Source of the DNA: Candidatus Poribacteria bacterium
GTDB lineage: Bacteria; Poribacteria; WGA-4E; PCPOR2b
NCBI GenBank assembly: GCA_021295755.1
Contig: JAGWBT010000001.1
Location: 2,349 to 66,348, forward strand
Direction of reading: 5' to 3'
DNA: 64,000 bases
In this document: positions 25,168-54,678 of the stretch, one piece after another
How positions within the stretch are numbered: position 1 is the stretch's first letter
How the letters are laid out: each line of letters starts with the position of its first letter
The notes under the pieces: model-generated
Seen by the model: only the letters and a program-made list of their open reading frames with translations
Told to the model about the DNA's origin: nothing
Databases searched by the model: none
Program-made: the position numbers and the translations under genes

Positions 25168-25818
25168 CTAAATCAGATGTAACCAATCGGCTAGTAGGAA
25201 GTCAACCCGTTGAATGAGCAGAGATACACGACCCATCACCGTGTTACCAAATGCTGAACCGAAGCCAATCATCAGAAAGACAATACCAATCTTTGAAACG
25301 CCGCCAACCACGCCCCGATGCTCCACAGAAAAGAAGAAGTAGGTCAACGTTGACATCACACCGATAAGCATAAGAATGACACCAAAGATTTGAAACGGAC
25401 CTAACTCGCCCGCATGAATCTGTGCAAATGGAGCCAACGTCCCATGCACCTGCTGAAAGATGTCAGCTCGCATTACATTTGGAATTGCTAAACCGGATCC
25501 TACCCCGATGAGGATAGCAATTGGATACCGAATTAACCACCCGTGTGTCGGGGCAAGACGTGTAAAGAATAACGCGCCAATACCGATTGGAATAAGCCTC
25601 AACAAGCCAACCCACTGCTGCTGCGTGACAGCTTGTGCAATGGGCTTCCACGCGAACGGTATAAAACCTTGGTGGATTGTAAGCACAATACCGTAGCCCA
25701 CCGAGACCCCCACAAACAGGTGTTCCGCAAATCGGTAAAACGGATTATCTCGATACAGAAAACTAAAGATGCAGAGTGTAAGTAGTGCAGCCACCCAGGT
25801 ACCAATCAATTCCGCCAT
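25168..25818 (-). CDS. hypothetical polytopic membrane protein (about 6 TM), operon member 4
   Basis: 216 aa, strongly hydrophobic helices throughout, no recognisable family. Gap of 17 nt to the upstream gene. Confidence 0.6.
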   Translation of the reverse strand: MAELIGTWVAALLTLCIFSFLYRDNPFYRFAEHLFVGVSVGYGIVLTIHQGFIPFAWKPIAQAVTQQQWVGLLRLIPIGIGALFFTRLAPTHGWLIRYPIAILIGVGSGLAIPNVMRADIFQQVHGTLAPFAQIHAGELGPFQIFGVILMLIGVMSTLTYFFFSVEHRGVVGGVSKIGIVFLMIGFGSAFGNTVMGRVSLLIQRVDFLLADWLHLI

Positions 25819-25835
25819 GTATGAAACCTCCTGTT

Positions 25836-26651
25836 TTATTCAGCTTGACGCCGTTGGATAAAGAAGGCGATATTACCTAGAATCACAAGCCCGACAACCA
25901 GTAGATGTGCGAAGGATTGGATGCTCATGCCTTCGGTCCCTTTTGCGGGTTTCCCAATTAGCTTTTCATACTCTGCAGCGCCTAAGAGGCCGGGCATCAA
26001 ACCGATCAGCTGCTTTGTCTGTAAGTACGGGTACATCTGCGACACAATCACCCCAGTCACACCCGCGGCTATCTGCTGGTTATACCTTGTGTTTGTATAA
26101 ACAATCCACCATTCCGTGGAGCTGCCCGATGCTAGGTCGAGAACCAGATCAACCTGATCATAATTTTTGATATCCGTCATCATGGGAATTTCCGCGAGTT
26201 GGGTTTCGGCATAATCGGCTTCAAAAACGGAATCGATTGCCGTACCCATTCCTAGAAGCACCTGCGTTGCGCCCGGCCGAAAGCCCAAATAGACGTAATC
26301 TTCACCATAAACCGCTCCCGCTTCGGCGGCGGTCTCCGACAACATTCCATCTCCCAACGTTGCCCCTTCCGCCAGAAGCGTCATGCCAATAATCCGAATC
26401 TTGTTCCGAAAACAGTGGTGTATCACCGCTTTTGCCATCGGGTGGAGTTCCGCTAACGACGAGGGGCCGTAGTTAAATCCAATCATGAGGGTTGAACCGG
26501 CGGGCAGCGCTTCAATATAGTCGTAGGTACTACGCGTCGGTTGTGAAACAGTGATAGGAAAACTGACTGACAGCAAGGAAGGAATAATTACCGCCAATGC
26601 AACCAAAATGAAGACAATTCGCCGATCTATGTTCATTAGTTTTTCGATCAT
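25836..26651 (-). CDS. hypothetical bitopic membrane protein (N- and C-terminal TM helices flanking a soluble domain), operon member 3
   Basis: 271 aa. N-terminal TM (IVFILVALAVIIPSLL), C-terminal TM (LLVVGLVILGNIAFFIQRR). The C-terminal region resembles that of the 27336 product. 3-nt gap to the upstream gene. Confidence 0.6.
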   Translation of the reverse strand: MIEKLMNIDRRIVFILVALAVIIPSLLSVSFPITVSQPTRSTYDYIEALPAGSTLMIGFNYGPSSLAELHPMAKAVIHHCFRNKIRIIGMTLLAEGATLGDGMLSETAAEAGAVYGEDYVYLGFRPGATQVLLGMGTAIDSVFEADYAETQLAEIPMMTDIKNYDQVDLVLDLASGSSTEWWIVYTNTRYNQQIAAGVTGVIVSQMYPYLQTKQLIGLMPGLLGAAEYEKLIGKPAKGTEGMSIQSFAHLLVVGLVILGNIAFFIQRRQAE

Positions 26652-26654
26652 TTT

Positions 26655-27305
26655 TTAATCTCCTTCTACGCCTCCGAGATATGAACGTTCAATACCCAAG
26701 ATGATACGAATTGACTGAGAAATCACACCGAGGCTGATGCCAAGAATAATACCCCGTCGTGCGGAGAGATTCGGATTATCTAAAATCCACTGCCGCGCTG
26801 CAGAAGGCAAGTTCTCTCCAAATGGCATTATCGTGTTCCAGATGAGATCCCCAACGGGGGCATTCCCAACCATGACAACTAGTGCCGCAGCAAGTAGCAG
26901 GGTCGCCTCAAGGGTGCGGGCCCGAAAAGCACGATAGGCAGCAGAGGCGATAAAAAATGCGAGAAGTGAAAACATCGTTGCATCCATTGGCACTTGCACG
27001 TTTTCAAACAGCCACACAAAAGCCGGATGCCTTTGGCCAAACGGAATGCCAATCGCAACCATAACGATCATTCCAATGAAGACCAGAAAGCTATATTGCC
27101 AATATTCACTGCGCCGACGGATGCGGACCCAGTGGGTCTGTATCAAGGTTGCGATAGCTAGTACAAGTGCGAATGGACCGATAACCAATGCCCAATCGAT
27201 GACCTCCTTGTTGAGCCCTTGAGAAAATGGGTGCGGGCTAAATTCGGTAAGTGCCATCACAATACCAAATGCGAAACAAAGGATTAACGGAACTTGTCGT
27301 CTCAT
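26655..27305 (-). CDS. hypothetical polytopic membrane protein, operon member 2
   Basis: 216 aa (same length as 25168..25818), 5-6 predicted TM helices, no recognisable motifs. 30-nt gap to the upstream gene. Confidence 0.6.
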   Translation of the reverse strand: MRRQVPLILCFAFGIVMALTEFSPHPFSQGLNKEVIDWALVIGPFALVLAIATLIQTHWVRIRRRSEYWQYSFLVFIGMIVMVAIGIPFGQRHPAFVWLFENVQVPMDATMFSLLAFFIASAAYRAFRARTLEATLLLAAALVVMVGNAPVGDLIWNTIMPFGENLPSAARQWILDNPNLSARRGIILGISLGVISQSIRIILGIERSYLGGVEGD

Positions 27306-27335
27306 AACACCTCCTGAAGCCTGAAACGTAAAACG

Positions 27336-28232
27336 CTACTTAACTCGCTGGAAGAAGGTCGTCATCCAAGTAATCCCGAAAAGTTCGAGAATGACGCCAA
27401 TCACGATAGCACCAAAAATCATCACCTTGCCGTAATCTTGCCCCTTGAGACTACCGAGCAGCATCGGTTCTCGAGACAGGTACGCGCTAGCTGCGTATAG
27501 TTCTTCACCAATCAGTGTATAGTCACACGCGGCGATGAAGAACGGTAGTTGGTGCTCCTTGTCGGTTCCGGCGATCTGGATTGCCCCGATGGAATTGCCG
27601 GTTTCCGCCAAAATCAACGATTCAGCAAAAAACGAACCTTGCAGGAAAACTGCCGCCGGCTCTTCCCGAACCATCATTCCATCAACACCCGCAGCATAAG
27701 CGAATTGACTTTCTGTGAGGAAGAAGATGTTCTCCTCATTATAGGCATCAGGTCGTCCTTCATTGAGATAAGCGGTTCGCACCATCTCCCGAACTACATT
27801 CATTACAATAGGATCATTGCACGGGACTCGCAGCGGCGTTTCATAATCCGCGGTCTTCTGTGCCACTTGGCTGAGGATGTTCATACTCGCGATGGTTGCA
27901 ACGTTGCTGACACCTCCCAAGCCAAGGATGTACATAATCGAACGTCCCATCTCCGTCGCTCGACCAATTGCCTCATCTACCGCTTCAAGTCCGGGAATAC
28001 GACGGATAAACAGTTCCTTCCCACTTCGAGCATGGTAGATACAATAGACTACTGTGGCTGAGTACAGGAGCACGGCGAGGAAAATCCATATTTTGGCGGT
28101 GTCAAACAATCGGGTATCTTCGGTTGTTGTTGCTTCTTGTGCAAAGGCATTAAGGCCACACCCTAGCACAAAAACCAGTATAACTAACCCTTGAACCACC
28201 GGTGATGGACAAAAGATTTTTTGCCCTTTCAT
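27336..28232 (-). CDS. hypothetical membrane/lipoprotein-like protein with soluble domain and C-terminal TM, operon member 1
   Basis: Start chosen at ATG 28232 (MKGQKIFCPSPVVQGLVILVFVLGCG, lipobox-like, RBS GGAGG); the track ORF extends to 28286. C-terminal TM (VMIFGAIVIGVILELFGITWMTTFF). Confidence 0.6.
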   Translation of the reverse strand: MKGQKIFCPSPVVQGLVILVFVLGCGLNAFAQEATTTEDTRLFDTAKIWIFLAVLLYSATVVYCIYHARSGKELFIRRIPGLEAVDEAIGRATEMGRSIMYILGLGGVSNVATIASMNILSQVAQKTADYETPLRVPCNDPIVMNVVREMVRTAYLNEGRPDAYNEENIFFLTESQFAYAAGVDGMMVREEPAAVFLQGSFFAESLILAETGNSIGAIQIAGTDKEHQLPFFIAACDYTLIGEELYAASAYLSREPMLLGSLKGQDYGKVMIFGAIVIGVILELFGITWMTTFFQRVK

Positions 28233-28405
28233 ATTGTAACCTCCAGTCTTTTGGTTCGATGCGTTTGTTTCCATGGATGAGAACATAATTGATAGCTGCG
28301 ATTATAGCACCGTATCGCAACGCTGTCAAAAGGAAACAGGATACAACAACTTCTCTGAATGGATATTGATCCGCCTTTAAGAGGTCCTGTTAAAATAAGC
28401 CACAA

Positions 28406-29359
28406 TTAGAACCCACGTCTCTTACCGACAACGTTCCGCAGCGGTTCCCCCTTCAGGTAGCGTTCCAAGTTTTCGCAGAAAAATTCGAAAGTTTTGCGCG
28501 GACGATGTTGCGAGGAACCGGCCCTGTGCGGTGTGATAATAAGATTAGGAGCATCCCAGAGTGGACTCTCCGGCGGGGGTGGTTCAATTTCTGTCACGTC
28601 TAAGCCAGCACCGGCAATTTCGCCATTCTTTAGTGCGTCAACGAGGGCATCTTCGTCAATAATACCGCCGCGAGTGACGTTGACTAGGTAGGCAGTCTGT
28701 TTCATAGCAGCGAGTTCTACGCTTCCAATCAGATGATAGGTCTCCGGGGTTTTGGGGCAAGCGAGGAGAACCGCGTCCGAACGCCTAAGTAACTCGTGCA
28801 GATTTTCCCGCGTTGCAGATTTTAGCTCAGCGACCTCGTCCGGCTTGTCCTGGCGTACCGGGTCTACAGCCAAGATTGTCATATCGTAACCGCGAGCCCG
28901 CTGCACCATCTCCATACCAAAGCCGCCCAAACCGATTATACCAAGCGTACTGCCTGTCAGTTCAACCGCTGGCATCTGCCACGCACGACGTCCATCACTC
29001 CCCATGACGTGTGGGATGCCTCGCGCAAGAGACAAAAGCAACGCCCAGGCGTGTTCGCCGCCTTGGCTTGCGTAGAGCCCTGCCATGTTGGTAACTGTCA
29101 CATCATCTCTCTTGATGATTTCCGGAAACAGAAAGTTGTCCATGCCTGCGCTGTTGGATTGGATCCAGCGTAGGTTCGGAGCCACCGCACACACGGAGGG
29201 CAGAAAAAGCCCCAATATGACCTCCGTATCGGGGGCAAATTGGAGGGCTTCCTCTTCGTTGGTGGCGTGACAGACTTCGTGGTCGCCGTATTTGTGTGCA
29301 ATCTGTTGGAAGGTTTCGATCTGCGCTACGTCGAAGGCAAAGTGGATCAGTATTCTCAT
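28406..29359 (-). CDS. D-isomer-specific 2-hydroxyacid dehydrogenase (NAD-binding)
   Basis: GIIGLGGFG Rossmann motif, catalytic R/E/H region (…ITPHRAGSS). 317 aa. Confidence 0.85.
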   Translation of the reverse strand: MRILIHFAFDVAQIETFQQIAHKYGDHEVCHATNEEEALQFAPDTEVILGLFLPSVCAVAPNLRWIQSNSAGMDNFLFPEIIKRDDVTVTNMAGLYASQGGEHAWALLLSLARGIPHVMGSDGRRAWQMPAVELTGSTLGIIGLGGFGMEMVQRARGYDMTILAVDPVRQDKPDEVAELKSATRENLHELLRRSDAVLLACPKTPETYHLIGSVELAAMKQTAYLVNVTRGGIIDEDALVDALKNGEIAGAGLDVTEIEPPPPESPLWDAPNLIITPHRAGSSQHRPRKTFEFFCENLERYLKGEPLRNVVGKRRGF

Positions 29360-30540: not shown

Positions 30541-31557
30541 ATGGCAAAACACCCAATGGACAATATCGAGCCGGGTATCAAAGTAACAGCACAGATGTCC
30601 CCAGAACCAACTGAGGAGGATCTACAATTCACCCAGCAGATGGGGGTCGAATATGTAGTACTCTGGACAGATGGGGAACACGCCAATTACGACTATTTCA
30701 TGAGTCGCCGCGAGATTTTCGAGAACGCCGGATTAAAGATTTACGGTTTCGGCAATAGTGATGTCCATAATCAGGATGCAATTGTGTTGAACCTACCCAA
30801 CCGCGATACGAAGATCGAGCAGTACAAGCGCTATATCCGCGATCTTGGTCGCGCCGGAATTCCATATACCACCTATGCTCACATGGGAAATGGGATCTGG
30901 AGCACGGAGCGTGAAACAACCCGTGGTGGTGCCAGCGCAAGGGGATTTGACCTCGATAAAGCGGAAGAAGGACACTGGCGAGACAAAAGTTATCGGATGC
31001 CGCTCTCACACGGACGCGAATATTCGGAACAGGAAATTTGGGACAACTACACCCATTTCATCAAGGAAGCCGCTCCTGTCGCGGAAGAAGCCGGAGTGAT
31101 GATAGGCATCCATCCTGATGACCCACCCGTGCCAAAGCTAGCAGGCATCCCACGCTGTATCTTCAGCAGCTTTGAAGGCTACAAACGAGCGCTCGAAATC
31201 GCCGACAGTCCCAACGTTGGAATGTGTCTCTGTGTTGGCTGCTGGCTAGAGGGGGGCGAGTTGATGGGTAAGGATGTCCTAGAGTCCATGCGCTTCTTTG
31301 GTGAATGGGGCAAGGTCTTCAAGGTGCATTTCCGAAATGTAGACCAACCGCTGCCACACTTTGTCGAGACCTTTGTGGACAATGGATATCAGGACATGTA
31401 CCAAGTGATGAAAGTGATGCGCGAAGTGAACTTCAAGGGCGTTGCGATTCCAGACCACATCCCATCTATGGTGGGAGATCGAAGTGGGACAGCATATACC
31501 ATCGCCTACATGAACGCACTCGTCAAACGCGCGAATGAGGAGGTTACTGCCGCGTAG
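30541..31557 (+). CDS. uxuA: mannonate dehydratase
   Basis: Aligns with E. coli UxuA over the conserved core: PVAEEAGVMIGIHPDDPP vs PVAEEVGVRMAVHPDDPP; VHFRN vs THLRS; IPDHIPSM vs MRPDHGHQM. Confidence 0.85.
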   Translation: MAKHPMDNIEPGIKVTAQMSPEPTEEDLQFTQQMGVEYVVLWTDGEHANYDYFMSRREIFENAGLKIYGFGNSDVHNQDAIVLNLPNRDTKIEQYKRYIRDLGRAGIPYTTYAHMGNGIWSTERETTRGGASARGFDLDKAEEGHWRDKSYRMPLSHGREYSEQEIWDNYTHFIKEAAPVAEEAGVMIGIHPDDPPVPKLAGIPRCIFSSFEGYKRALEIADSPNVGMCLCVGCWLEGGELMGKDVLESMRFFGEWGKVFKVHFRNVDQPLPHFVETFVDNGYQDMYQVMKVMREVNFKGVAIPDHIPSMVGDRSGTAYTIAYMNALVKRANEEVTAA

Positions 31558-32295
31558 TCACCGTTCTCGGCGAATGCATTGGACTGCGGCTTGCAGGCTC
31601 TTGGCGTTGGTATATTGGGAGATGATTTTCTTTAATTCCGTTAGCGTGGCGTTTTGTAAGGTTTGAACCTCCTGAATTAGCAGCGGCAAAGCCCGCACCA
31701 CATTGTCCACAATAGTCACACCAGCCGCCTGGGCAGTCCGCGACATTGGGTTGAGGTCAACCGTTATCACTGTTTTACCCATTTTCTGCAGTGCTTCACA
31801 GCGATCGCCATCCTCAAGTGGAACGAACACGACATCGGCACGAGAGATACCTTCTGGATGGACGAACTTCCGATTTGAATCAATAAACGAAAGTTGTGCC
31901 TCCGTTGTAGGCATCAATACATGAACCGCCCCATGCTTCTCGAGATGCTCTCGTATCGCAACCTCCCGTTCTTTTGAGGTGTGGAAAATGTTCACCTCCA
32001 ACGGGGCTTTGAGGACATTAGAGAAGGCCACCAATTCACCTGGCACCAGTGCCGCAACATTACCGTTAACGGAGATTACGGGATGTTCGGCGTCCAGCAG
32101 GATGGCTGCCCCGGCGCGGATTGCATCCATAGCGAAGGGATGTGTTTTTTCTCCGATGAGGTAGTCAAACGCTTCGCCACGCCCATGTGCCATCAATCCG
32201 TGGATGGAGGTCACTCCACTCTCTACGCCGGCGACTATTGTATCCCTCAGCTTCAACGATGCATACCGGGGATGACTTTCAGGAACATCGCTCAT
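31558..32295 (-). CDS. 4-phosphopantoate--beta-alanine ligase (archaeal-type phosphopantothenate synthetase, DUF137)
   Basis: N-terminal SHPRYASLKLRD...GLMAHGRGEAFDYLIGEKT matches the pattern I recall for the PPS/DUF137 family (HPRY.SL...G..AHGRGEAFDYL.GE.T). Overlaps the upstream GHMP kinase gene by 4 nt. Confidence 0.6.
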   Translation of the reverse strand: MSDVPESHPRYASLKLRDTIVAGVESGVTSIHGLMAHGRGEAFDYLIGEKTHPFAMDAIRAGAAILLDAEHPVISVNGNVAALVPGELVAFSNVLKAPLEVNIFHTSKEREVAIREHLEKHGAVHVLMPTTEAQLSFIDSNRKFVHPEGISRADVVFVPLEDGDRCEALQKMGKTVITVDLNPMSRTAQAAGVTIVDNVVRALPLLIQEVQTLQNATLTELKKIISQYTNAKSLQAAVQCIRRER

Positions 32296-33131
32296 AATAG
32301 CCTGCCTTTTTCACCACTAGAGAGTTGTGTTTCGGTCGCGCCTTCAAAAGGGTGAGTGCTAAACACTGCATTACCCAACATAATCATAGACGCAATCCCG
32401 CCCGCATCCTCGATTTCACGGATGGTTTCTTGCACGCGCGTATCCTCTAATAATCCACTATTGAGGGAGAATTGTTTGGACAATTGAATACAGGCGTTAA
32501 AGTCAACTGACTCCGCTTTCGTGAGTATCTCTAAAGCCTGCAATGTTTCATCTGCCGCTCTGTTGATACGCTCTCTCCGCTCGGCGCTTTCGAGGATGGT
32601 TTTCGTCTGGATAGAACTAAAATATCGGTAATAGACGGGTTGAGCTGGAATCGGCAGTCGCTCCGCAGCAAGGGGATAACCTCTCTTCAATTTAACGAGA
32701 CAGCCACCGTGGTATTGGGCGCATACATCTCCTAACCCTGTTCGATTTTCCACTTCCGCCACATGGGCGGTCATCGCCAATTCTTCCTCAGATTTGCCTA
32801 ATTCTAGTAAGGCGTTAAGTGCGTAGGTCGTAGCGAGCGAAGCTGCTCCACTTAGTCCAAAACCGCATCCGAGCGGTAAGGGCGAATCGATTTCTATCCG
32901 CATCGGCTGAGATGTCAGTTTCTGGACAACGGATACAACGGTAGGGAAACGAATCTCGCTGCCGTTAAACTGGACAGTGGTCTGGCTACTATGCTGGGCA
33001 ACCGTTACAACAACGCCTTCTGTAATGGTAAACCCCATGCCGAGCGAGTGCATCTTGGTTGCTTCTAGGTGAGGAATGATCTTGAATACGCAAGAGAGGT
33101 TGCCGGGTGCGAATGCTTTCGCCTGTGTCAT
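32292..33131 (-). CDS. GHMP-family kinase, probable pantoate kinase
   Basis: GHMP ATP-binding motif PLGCGFGLSGAASLA. About 280 aa, the typical PoK size. Translationally coupled (ATGA overlap) to the PPS-like gene, as in archaea. Confidence 0.6.
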   Translation of the reverse strand: MTQAKAFAPGNLSCVFKIIPHLEATKMHSLGMGFTITEGVVVTVAQHSSQTTVQFNGSEIRFPTVVSVVQKLTSQPMRIEIDSPLPLGCGFGLSGAASLATTYALNALLELGKSEEELAMTAHVAEVENRTGLGDVCAQYHGGCLVKLKRGYPLAAERLPIPAQPVYYRYFSSIQTKTILESAERRERINRAADETLQALEILTKAESVDFNACIQLSKQFSLNSGLLEDTRVQETIREIEDAGGIASMIMLGNAVFSTHPFEGATETQLSSGEKGRLL

Positions 33132-33312
33132 GTTTTCGCTGTTTTAACCTTGTTTCCATTAAGATTGGTTCAGTGGTTTTAGCATATTTGTCGCCGAATA
33201 TTATACAGATTTGTCGGGTGGTGTCAACGGAAATCAGCGACGCCAGAAATAGGTGAACAGGCAAGTCAAAATCAGAATTTCAGCACAAACCTAATCAATT
33301 CAAGGAGAGCTT

Positions 33313-34104
33313 ATGAGCGAAATAATTCTATCTTGTACGACCTGTGCGTTACGCAATCCACCGTTGGATGAAATTTCAGAAACGTTGAAGCACGCACCGA
33401 AAGCGGGGTATGCCTACTGGGGGTTGGCAGGACCAATTACTTGGACACCTGGGCTTATCCGGTGGTTGGATACAGAAGGGCTGCGCCTTCAGGCAGCTGA
33501 AGTAGGCCTGAAAGGATTGACGGAGGTTTATGCGTCAGCAATTTCGACCGATTCCGTCGACGCAGCAGAGAGTTCAATCGCAGACTTATTGCTCAACGTT
33601 CAAGCAGCCGTGAAACTACAGTGTCCACTGCTTGTGTTCTCAGGTGGGAGGCGGCAAACTGATGGTTTGAGAAACACAATCGCTGGGCTTGAGAAACTTG
33701 CTCAGTCAATCGCTGATGTCCCTGTGAGAGTGGCATTGGAGCCGCACGTGGAATCTCAATTTCAGAATGAAGCGGATTACGACGAAATCTTTGAACATAT
33801 CACCACAGAGCAAATCGGCATCACAATTGATACAGGGCATTTTCATGTGGCAGGCGTGGACTGGAAAGCGCTTATCCGCAAGTATCCCGACCGAATCTAC
33901 AACGTCCATGTGAAAGATCACCTCGGTTCTCAATCCGTCCCGATTGGAGACGGGGAAGTCGATATGCCGGGCTTAGTCCATGAACTTCGCGCCATCGACT
34001 ACTGCGGACCACTTGCTGTAGAATTAGAGGTCGAAGATCCAGAAAATCTGCCACGATACGTCGCTGATGCTTACCAATACCTGTCAGGCTTGATTGGCGT
34101 CTGA
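33313..34104 (+). CDS. sugar phosphate isomerase/epimerase (xylose-isomerase-like TIM barrel)
   Basis: 263 aa. ALEPH..., HVKD and DTGHFHVAG motifs typical of AP_endonuc_2 / xylose-isomerase-like barrels. Confidence 0.8.
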   Translation: MSEIILSCTTCALRNPPLDEISETLKHAPKAGYAYWGLAGPITWTPGLIRWLDTEGLRLQAAEVGLKGLTEVYASAISTDSVDAAESSIADLLLNVQAAVKLQCPLLVFSGGRRQTDGLRNTIAGLEKLAQSIADVPVRVALEPHVESQFQNEADYDEIFEHITTEQIGITIDTGHFHVAGVDWKALIRKYPDRIYNVHVKDHLGSQSVPIGDGEVDMPGLVHELRAIDYCGPLAVELEVEDPENLPRYVADAYQYLSGLIGV

Positions 34105-53769: not shown

Positions 53770-54678
53770 CTAATCCTGAGAAATGCTTTCCATGGTAATA
53801 TGCAAATCACGTTCTGTAGGAATAGTATAAACTGAAGTAGTATTAATGTTGGAATGCCCTAATATCTTTGCGACTCTATCAATCGACTGCCCAGCATCAA
53901 TAAGATTTTTGGCACAGGTGTGCCTAAATACGTGCGGAGACAGATTGTCTATTTTTGCTTTATACGCATATTTCTGTATCACATATCGAACGCCACGATC
54001 TGTCAGCGGCATCCGCTTCTGCCCGTAAAACAGAAAACGCTCCCTTTCAGGATTAGATCCGGCTATATAGATGACCTCTTCATTGTTATCAAATGATTTT
54101 ATAAAATCCTTCAGAACACCTATGGCAGTTGAGTTTAAGGGCACATTGCGGCGTTTCGTTCCTTTACCCTCACGCACTGTAATCATATTACTATTCGTTG
54201 ATATTCTAATATCAGAAACTCTCAGATTGCAAAGTTCTCCAACGCGTATGCCGGTATGCAGCAGCATTGTAATAATCGCTAAATCCCTCAAATTGCCTGA
54301 TCTGCGTACCGCCCGCAATAACGCTAGCTGCTCTTTACGTTCCAAAGCTCGTGGGGCAAGCGGTTCTTCCGCGACACTTCGTATGCCTTCAGCGGGGTTA
54401 CTGGCAATGAGGTCGTTTTGCTGTGCCCACTGGCAGAAGCTTGAAATACTTATCAAACTGCGATTAATGGTCGATGGCTTCTTATCCCAGTCCAGCATTG
54501 CATTTCTATAGTCGATAATCTCCATCGGCGTAATGTTTTCAAGATTCAGTGGTTCTCCTGTGGTTTGTTGGAACCAACGTGAGAATGAGCTAAGATCTGT
54601 CATGTACGCCTTGATAGTCTGCTCGGACTTATCTTGGTCATATAGATAATCGCGGTAATCCTGTAACAAATCGTCCAT
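53770..54678 (-). CDS. tyrosine-type site-specific recombinase/integrase (XerC/XerD-like)
   Basis: N-terminal SAM-like core-binding domain. C-terminal catalytic residues R...HxxR...Y (…HVFRHTCAKNL…LGHSNINTTSVYT). Confidence 0.85.
   Translation of the reverse strand: MDDLLQDYRDYLYDQDKSEQTIKAYMTDLSSFSRWFQQTTGEPLNLENITPMEIIDYRNAMLDWDKKPSTINRSLISISSFCQWAQQNDLIASNPAEGIRSVAEEPLAPRALERKEQLALLRAVRRSGNLRDLAIITMLLHTGIRVGELCNLRVSDIRISTNSNMITVREGKGTKRRNVPLNSTAIGVLKDFIKSFDNNEEVIYIAGSNPERERFLFYGQKRMPLTDRGVRYVIQKYAYKAKIDNLSPHVFRHTCAKNLIDAGQSIDRVAKILGHSNINTTSVYTIPTERDLHITMESISQD

Follow-up and report, generated by a model that had tools for sequence, protein, structure and literature searches.

A 64,000-nucleotide stretch of the Candidatus Poribacteria bacterium contig JAGWBT010000001.1 (assembly GCA_021295755.1; analyzed in full and hereafter called the window) carries on its minus strand two overlapping genes that very probably constitute a native, promoter-driven and coupled poribacterial operon for the archaeal-order conversion of pantoate to 4'-phosphopantothenate, in which a pantoate kinase (PoK) and a phosphopantothenate synthetase (PPS) acquired long ago from an archaeon would replace the pantothenate synthetase (PS) PanC and pantothenate kinase (PanK). 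The identity of both genes, their coupling, the conservation of their promoter, their family placement and their native composition are directly observed; the enzyme activities of PoK and PPS are inferred. An earlier note on this DNA had read the genes as the archaeal signature pair of PoK followed by PPS, and family assignment, PDB matches and tree placement all support that reading. The order of the steps from pantoate to 4'-phosphopantothenate has long been treated as a marker that sets Archaea apart from Bacteria and Eukarya; a bacterium using the archaeal order would mean that this marker has exceptions and that domains can exchange core cofactor pathways.

This cross-domain point was already made in 2020 for sponge-associated Poribacteria, in which PoK and PPS were reported to replace PanC and PanK (Thomes & Lescure, Genome Biol Evol 2020; PMC7883664), so that the finding presented here is correct but already known and the window adds one more genome to it. 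In that survey, the sponge-associated 'Entoporibacteria' carried PoK in 31 and PPS in 34 of 38 genomes, with neither PanK nor PS in any of them and with the bacterial dephospho-CoA kinase (DPCK), CoaBC and phosphopantetheine adenylyltransferase (PPAT) kept, and the free-living 'Pelagiporibacteria' had type III PanK and PS. Our literature search found no other paper reporting PoK or PPS in bacteria.

Identity of the two enzymes

The downstream gene of the pair (Table 1) encodes a protein that begins MSDVPESHPRYASL...AHGRGEAFDYLIGEKT and matches PF02006 (PPS_PS) over the entire profile (positions 1-176 of 176; 1.7e-70, 236.6 bits against a gathering threshold of 26.4), which bears out its earlier placement in the DUF137/PPS family. 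It clears the cut-off of the NCBIfam subfamily NF010324 (PRK13761; 342.7 against 227) and, marginally, that of the equivalog NF041123 (4-phosphopantoate--beta-alanine ligase; 302 against 300), and its best PDB match is the PPS of Thermococcus kodakarensis (3wdk; 1.4e-68), with which it shares 50% identity in a full-length alignment (residues 2-241). The segments HGRGEAFDYLIGE, SVNGN, VPLEDGDR and TIVDN are invariant in an alignment of seven PPS sequences that has more than 100 invariant columns, and conservation of the substrate-binding residues has been described for Poribacteria PPS (PMC7883664). The protein, deposited in GenBank as 'phosphopantothenate/pantothenate synthetase' (MCE2393000.1), is predicted to condense 4-phosphopantoate and beta-alanine into 4'-phosphopantothenate.

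Its upstream partner matches the N-terminal domain of GHMP kinases (PF00288; 2.2e-15, 57 bits against a gathering threshold of 22.3), as had been claimed, and holds the segment PLGCGFGLSGAASLA (residues 86-100), within which the phosphate-binding PxGxGxGxSxA motif of the family reads PLGCGFGLSGAAS (residues 86-98). The two highest-scoring NCBIfam families are both pantoate-kinase equivalogs (NF040725, 153 bits; NF041122, 71.7 bits), followed at no more than 37 bits by mevalonate kinase (36.8), homoserine kinase and galactokinase; a best profile from another GHMP kinase, which the earlier note had named as evidence against its own reading, was thus not what emerged. The best PDB match is likewise a pantoate kinase, that of T. 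kodakarensis (6jbc; 7e-15, 29% identity), and the next GHMP protein, a mevalonate kinase, follows at 2e-5. An AlphaFold model of the kinase, calculated from an alignment of 13 sequences at least 64% identical, was too poor for fold comparison (predicted local distance difference test score 56.5).

For the T. kodakarensis enzyme, Tomita et al. in 2012 reportedly assigned S104, E134 and D143 to catalysis and S28, H131, R155 and T186 to pantoate recognition. Six of these seven residues are identical in the window kinase, where S29, S94, H123, E126, D135 and T176 correspond to S28, S104, H131, E134, D143 and T186, respectively; this conservation is supportive and not decisive. The kinase is predicted to phosphorylate D-pantoate to 4-phosphopantoate with ATP, and the characterized enzymes of T. 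kodakarensis and Methanospirillum hungatei also work in this order, PoK and then PPS. GenBank names the window protein only 'sugar kinase' (MCE2393001.1) and those closely related to it 'GHMP kinase'; the name 'pantoate kinase' is given to homologues by JGI and in a few NCBI records.

Table 1 Location of the gene pair and of other features of the window discussed in the text (window positions)
Feature	Position	Strand	Evidence
Pantoate kinase (PoK; predicted), GHMP family, 279 aa	32292..33131	-	PF00288, NF040725 (best family, below cut-off), PDB 6jbc
Phosphopantothenate synthetase (PPS; predicted 4-phosphopantoate--beta-alanine ligase), 245 aa	31558..32295	-	PF02006, NF010324, NF041123, 3wdk
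ATGA overlap of PPS start codon and PoK stop codon	32292..32295	-	Read from sequence
Putative sigma-70 promoter of the pair	33200..33227	-	12/12 consensus match
D-2-hydroxyacid dehydrogenase homologue	28406..29359		35% identity to dehydrogenase upstream of PPS in other loci
Recombinase gene	53770..54678		
Kelch-repeat protein, 335 aa	34129..35136	-	Six-bladed repeat, N-terminal hydrophobic segment
Four-gene block (DUF6754 protein, then 216-, 271- and 216-aa proteins)	25168..28286	-	DUF6754, 411 bits; no Pfam match for the other three
LpxC-FabZ fusion, 425 aa	56780..58057		PF03331 + PF07977
TamB/YhdP-like protein, 2194 aa	10010..16594		

Operon structure, composition and age

As the earlier note had described, both open reading frames (ORFs) lie on the minus strand and overlap by ATGA: the plus strand reads tcat at positions 32292-32295, so that the PPS ATG shares bases with the kinase TGA, an arrangement that suggests translational coupling. 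A PoK gene immediately precedes that for PPS in 14 further bacterial loci as well as in many archaeal ones, and in 13 of these 14 bacterial loci, including ones labelled Gammaproteobacteria and Latescibacterota, the junction is again a -4 overlap or has 0 nt between the genes. At its other end the pair adjoins uxuA, also in agreement with the earlier description: a convergent UxuA-like gene (PF03786, 154 bits) ends at 31557 and the PPS stop codon occupies 31558-31560, with neither an intergenic spacer nor a terminator-like hairpin between the two convergent ends (31555-31560).

Some 70 nt ahead of the kinase start codon, the minus strand carries TTGACA (33227-33222) and TATAAT (33205-33200) separated by a 16-nt spacer; this full match to the sigma-70 consensus is the sole strong promoter-like site within 31000-33700. 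The two hexamers are unchanged in the three nearest Poribacteria genomes (L005-L007), in which the flanking intergenic DNA varies or is deleted, and the site probably serves as the promoter of the pair. Scans against Rfam, at gathering thresholds for the whole window and at E<=1 for positions 31300-33500, returned no match and hence no known leader or riboswitch, the pan motif included.

The GC content of the two genes (0.50-0.52) is close to the window mean (0.495), their GC content at third codon positions and codon usage are typical of the 45 genes of the window, and the codon-usage divergence of each is close to the median for genes of similar length. There is no integrase or transposase near the pair, the sole recombinase gene being located about 21 kb away. 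A recent genomic island was rejected on these grounds; since composition is native and no mobile element flanks the pair, any transfer was old, and the pair behaves like a long-resident native operon.

Phylogenetic placement and origin

In neighbor-joining trees built from the best 80 of at least 581 genome hits, the phylogeny that the earlier note had proposed places both PoK and PPS inside the archaeal PoK/PPS diversity. The bacterial PPS sequences all belong to a single clade (79 of 100 bootstrap replicates), which they share with sequences labelled Woesearchaeota, Nanoarchaeia and uncultured Methanosarcinales; the bacterial PoKs encoded next to PPS (n = 16) are monophyletic in 198 of 200 replicates and have that archaeal group as their sister, the two forming a joint clade, with PPS-adjacent PoKs as the archaeal members, in 99 of 100. 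This placement supports a transfer of the pair from archaea to bacteria as a unit. On a Woesearchaeota contig, the genes surrounding PoK-PPS include panB, coaBC and that for deoxyhypusine synthase, and the family is thereby linked to coenzyme A (CoA) synthesis in archaea. The cassette would thus have been acquired long ago from an archaeal source, the closest relatives in the sample being labelled DPANN-type and uncultured Methanosarcinales, and would then have been inherited or passed among bacteria as one unit.

Proposed pathway and comparison with known systems

In the proposed route, PoK would phosphorylate D-pantoate with ATP, PPS would ligate the 4-phosphopantoate to beta-alanine, also with ATP, and the resulting 4'-phosphopantothenate would enter the ordinary bacterial CoaBC, CoaD and CoaE steps. 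PoK-PPS would stand in for PanC and PanK in this lineage; the absence of those two enzymes is taken from the literature, and the 64-kb window contains no gene for PanC or for a type I, II or III PanK. The canonical combination of PanC with a PanK (CoaA, CoaW or CoaX) achieves the same net conversion of pantoate, beta-alanine and two ATP into 4'-phosphopantothenate, but takes the steps in the reverse order and relies on unrelated proteins, namely a PanC with a cytidylyltransferase fold and a kinase of the P-loop or ASKHA type, as opposed to the GHMP kinase and PF02006 protein of the window.

The T. kodakarensis enzymes (Yokooji et al. 2009; Tomita et al. 2012) belong to the same two families as those of the window, at the levels of identity given above. 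Unlike that archaeon, the window host is a diderm bacterium, the pair is preceded by a sigma-70-type promoter and CoA synthesis is completed by bacterial steps. The T. kodakarensis genes, TK2141 and TK1686, are not known to be adjacent.

The Entoporibacteria match the window in phylum, in both enzymes and in the suggested replacement of PS and PanK, as well as in the under-annotation of the kinase by NCBI as 'GHMP kinase' or 'sugar kinase' (PMC7883664). That study is silent on gene arrangement, whereas in the subclade of the window the genes are coupled through ATGA behind a conserved promoter; it also limits the trait to sponge Poribacteria, whereas here the cassette is found on contigs labelled with other phyla and on L022 (see below). 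Picrophilus torridus, with its 'archaeal PanK', is the mirror-image exception, in that one domain uses the order of the other (PMC7883664, PMC6650551), although there the exchange ran the opposite way and involved different enzymes. Archaeal feedback control has been reported at ketopantoate reductase (KPR) and not at the kinase (PMC6650551).

For annotation, the value of the window lies in a kinase that is still a 'sugar kinase' in GenBank; for metabolic models of sponge symbionts, pantothenate would be no intermediate, which would change predictions of exchange and auxotrophy. As to surveys, the data suggest that both the module and its ligase extend further among bacteria than has been reported.

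Distribution among Poribacteria and other phyla

Eleven contigs from at least four assemblies encode proteins identical to those of the window in identical gene order, and the GenBank entries for these proteins are assigned to Candidatus Poribacteria bacterium. At species level, the nearest genome is OY762266.1, a closed Poribacteria chromosome of 6.26 Mb (PPS 88% and PoK 91% identical), closed poribacterial chromosomes of 5-6 Mb encode homologues at 65-88% identity, and SB0675_bin_22, a genome listed in PMC7883664, is among those with homologues (L011). A protein search returned 533 relatives without names, which were not used for taxonomy; the taxon labels quoted for relatives' contigs are those of the depositors.

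Poribacteria fall into two groups, one with coupled PoK-PPS as in the window and the other with PPS but no PoK in the flanks (up to 6 kb). The PPS proteins of the latter form a clade with 91% support that spans 17 poribacterial genomes (L010-L012, L016, L018-L021, L023-L025, L027-L031 and L033). In L010 and L018, the two of these loci that were read, a 641-aa ORF follows and overlaps the end of PPS, and encodes a DUF6785/DUF6784 protein in L010.

Outside Poribacteria, the cassette is present on contigs labelled Gammaproteobacteria (L037, L044), Latescibacterota (L017, L035) and Methylomirabilia (L026), and on L022, a contig of a bin named after the run ERR599111, which we believe to be a Tara Oceans run. 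Several of these cassettes lie on contigs of 4-6 Mb, with megabase contigs labelled Gammaproteobacteria (OY282378.1) and Latescibacterota among them, and those labelled Methylomirabilia are on smaller contigs. All have the -4 or 0-nt junction except that of L057 (Opitutales), where PoK is located 262 bp upstream of PPS. An apparent fused PPS of 416 aa in the 70%-GC locus L037 was discarded as a spurious out-of-frame ORF. Altogether, the labels of cassette-bearing contigs cover Poribacteria, Latescibacterota, Methylomirabilota, Gammaproteobacteria and Verrucomicrobiota/Opitutales, many of them sponge-associated and some from groundwater or possibly the open ocean, which suggests that the bacterial distribution of PoK-PPS is wider than PMC7883664 describes.

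PF02006 genes without an adjacent pantoate kinase

In the Acidobacteriota loci L049, L050 and L053, as well as in L047, a PF02006 gene sits between panB (PF02548) and coaX (PF03309), with no PoK nearby; in the operon of L050 (CAWCKY010000003.1, 5117-7666), it overlaps panB by 4 nt. The label of L047 (a Klebsiella pneumoniae metagenome-assembled genome) is probably wrong, because its panB-PF02006-coaX operon is Acidobacteria-like. These operons suggest that some bacteria use a PF02006 ligase as a pantothenate synthetase, or in a hybrid route. Comparison of the CoaX-linked with the PoK-linked PF02006 proteins revealed two weakly informative alignment columns and no conserved residue that separates them.

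A different association is seen in Dehalococcoidia/Chloroflexi, where a D-isomer-specific 2-hydroxyacid dehydrogenase and a GNAT acetyltransferase are encoded directly upstream of a PPS without adjacent PoK in five of six loci (L046, 4484-6726; L051; L060; L067; L071). The window has a homologue of this dehydrogenase 2.2 kb from the pair (Table 1), and L005-L007 do likewise. KPR was not found in Poribacteria by PMC7883664, and because D-pantoate is a D-2-hydroxy acid, the dehydrogenase near PPS may, speculatively, be considered a candidate for the ketopantoate reductase of Poribacteria.

What interest remains beyond the published account concerns the hybrid operons and the broader spread of the cassette in bacteria, both of which lie outside the window. 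From these we tentatively draw a broader picture, whose chances we put somewhat below even, in which one bacterial lineage of the archaeal module, with monophyletic PoK and a conserved -4 or 0 junction, spread over several phyla and the PF02006 ligase was separately recruited, in the Acidobacteriota operons and the Dehalococcoidia clusters, which would imply a third, hybrid bacterial route to phosphopantothenate.

Alternative explanations

Several observations weigh against a PoK-PPS operon of archaeal descent. The earlier expectation that the kinase would prove closest to archaeal PoK held for the best PDB match and the best NCBIfam family, but the protein stays under the cut-offs of both PoK equivalogs (153 bits against 380 for NF040725 and 71.7 against 500 for NF041122). 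The names of these models refer to methanogen and Thermoplasma lineages, and the window kinase belongs to a separate bacterial and DPANN-type clade that they do not reach. Furthermore, Arg155 of T. kodakarensis PoK, the remaining one of the seven residues and reportedly needed to recognize pantoate, is replaced by Lys147, a conservative change; as lysine occupies this position in all 16 bacterial and in 11 of the 13 archaeal sequences of the joint clade, DPANN-type ones among them, it is a signature of the clade and not a defect. Finally, the 64-kb window holds no other CoA gene, and the trees are rough neighbor-joining trees with bootstraps whose sample is biased toward the best hits.

Could the two proteins instead follow the bacterial order with non-homologous enzymes, the PF02006 protein acting as a pantothenate synthetase and the phosphorylation of pantothenate being left to the GHMP kinase or to a PanK encoded elsewhere? 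The family name used by Pfam and NCBI, 'phosphopantothenate/pantothenate synthetase', and the operons in which PF02006 is flanked by panB and a type III PanK, together with the lack of a residue that tells such proteins from PoK-linked ones, speak for this possibility. Here, however, the PF02006 gene is translationally coupled to that of a PoK-type kinase in which residues implicated in recognizing pantoate are retained; moreover, Entoporibacteria are reported to be without PanK (PMC7883664), and the characterized T. kodakarensis and M. hungatei enzymes run PoK and then PPS (summarized in PMC6650551). We regard a bacterial order as improbable. Slightly less credit still goes to the idea that the kinase serves sugars or sugar acids together with its UxuA-like, xylose-isomerase-like TIM-barrel and GFO/IDH/MocA oxidoreductase neighbours and is next to PPS by chance, an idea that draws on the 'sugar kinase' label, on the missed equivalog cut-offs and on those neighbours themselves. 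PoK nevertheless outscores every other family by more than 100 bits, the neighbours belong to other transcription units or are encoded on other strands, and the kinase-PPS junction is kept across many contexts and several phyla, whereas the sugar-type neighbours are conserved only in the three closest genomes. As for a chimeric join of an archaeal fragment to a bacterial contig during assembly or binning, which the archaeal affinity of both genes and the metagenomic source might raise, it is effectively refuted by the recurrence of identical proteins in the same order on 11 contigs that come from several independent assemblies, by homologous pairs inside closed 5-6 Mb poribacterial chromosomes, by the native composition and codon usage and by a promoter of bacterial sigma-70 type. 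An archaeal-order PoK-PPS operon thus remains the reading that we prefer.

Genomic neighbourhood and host

The window encodes BamA with POTRA domains, TamB, an LpxC-FabZ fusion, LpxI, RelA/SpoT, FtsY, RuvX and YceG, which identifies the host as a diderm bacterium and agrees with the bacterial character attributed to the window before. The description of the surroundings of the pair as an accessory sugar-acid region fared less well, given the native composition and the lack of mobile elements; with RibD, archease, RNase J, Dus, TsaD and Sua5 all encoded within 15 kb, it is an over-reading. Around the pair, housekeeping genes (RibD, RNase J, Dus, TsaD) are interspersed with members of families found repeatedly in the window, such as xylose-isomerase-like TIM barrels and GFO/IDH/MocA proteins. 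Synteny is kept only in L005-L007 and comprises genes for UxuA-like, Amidohydro_2, 2-hydroxyacid dehydrogenase, DUF6754, TIM-barrel, GFO/IDH/MocA and ABC exporter proteins; more distant Poribacteria show another context.

Two genes upstream of the pair lies the gene for a Kelch-repeat protein (Table 1), which is absent from the otherwise syntenic L005-L007 and has the most divergent codon usage of the five genes around the pair (Kullback-Leibler divergence 0.24); it is apparently a lineage-specific insertion of a repeat protein of eukaryote-like type, and genes of this class have been noted in sponge symbionts. On the other side, a four-gene block begins with a DUF6754 membrane protein; this and two of the three proteins that follow are about 86-92% identical in L005-L007, the third lying beyond the flank that was compared. 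Further away, the gene for the giant TamB/YhdP-like protein is located upstream of that for BamA, with a HEAT-repeat gene between them.

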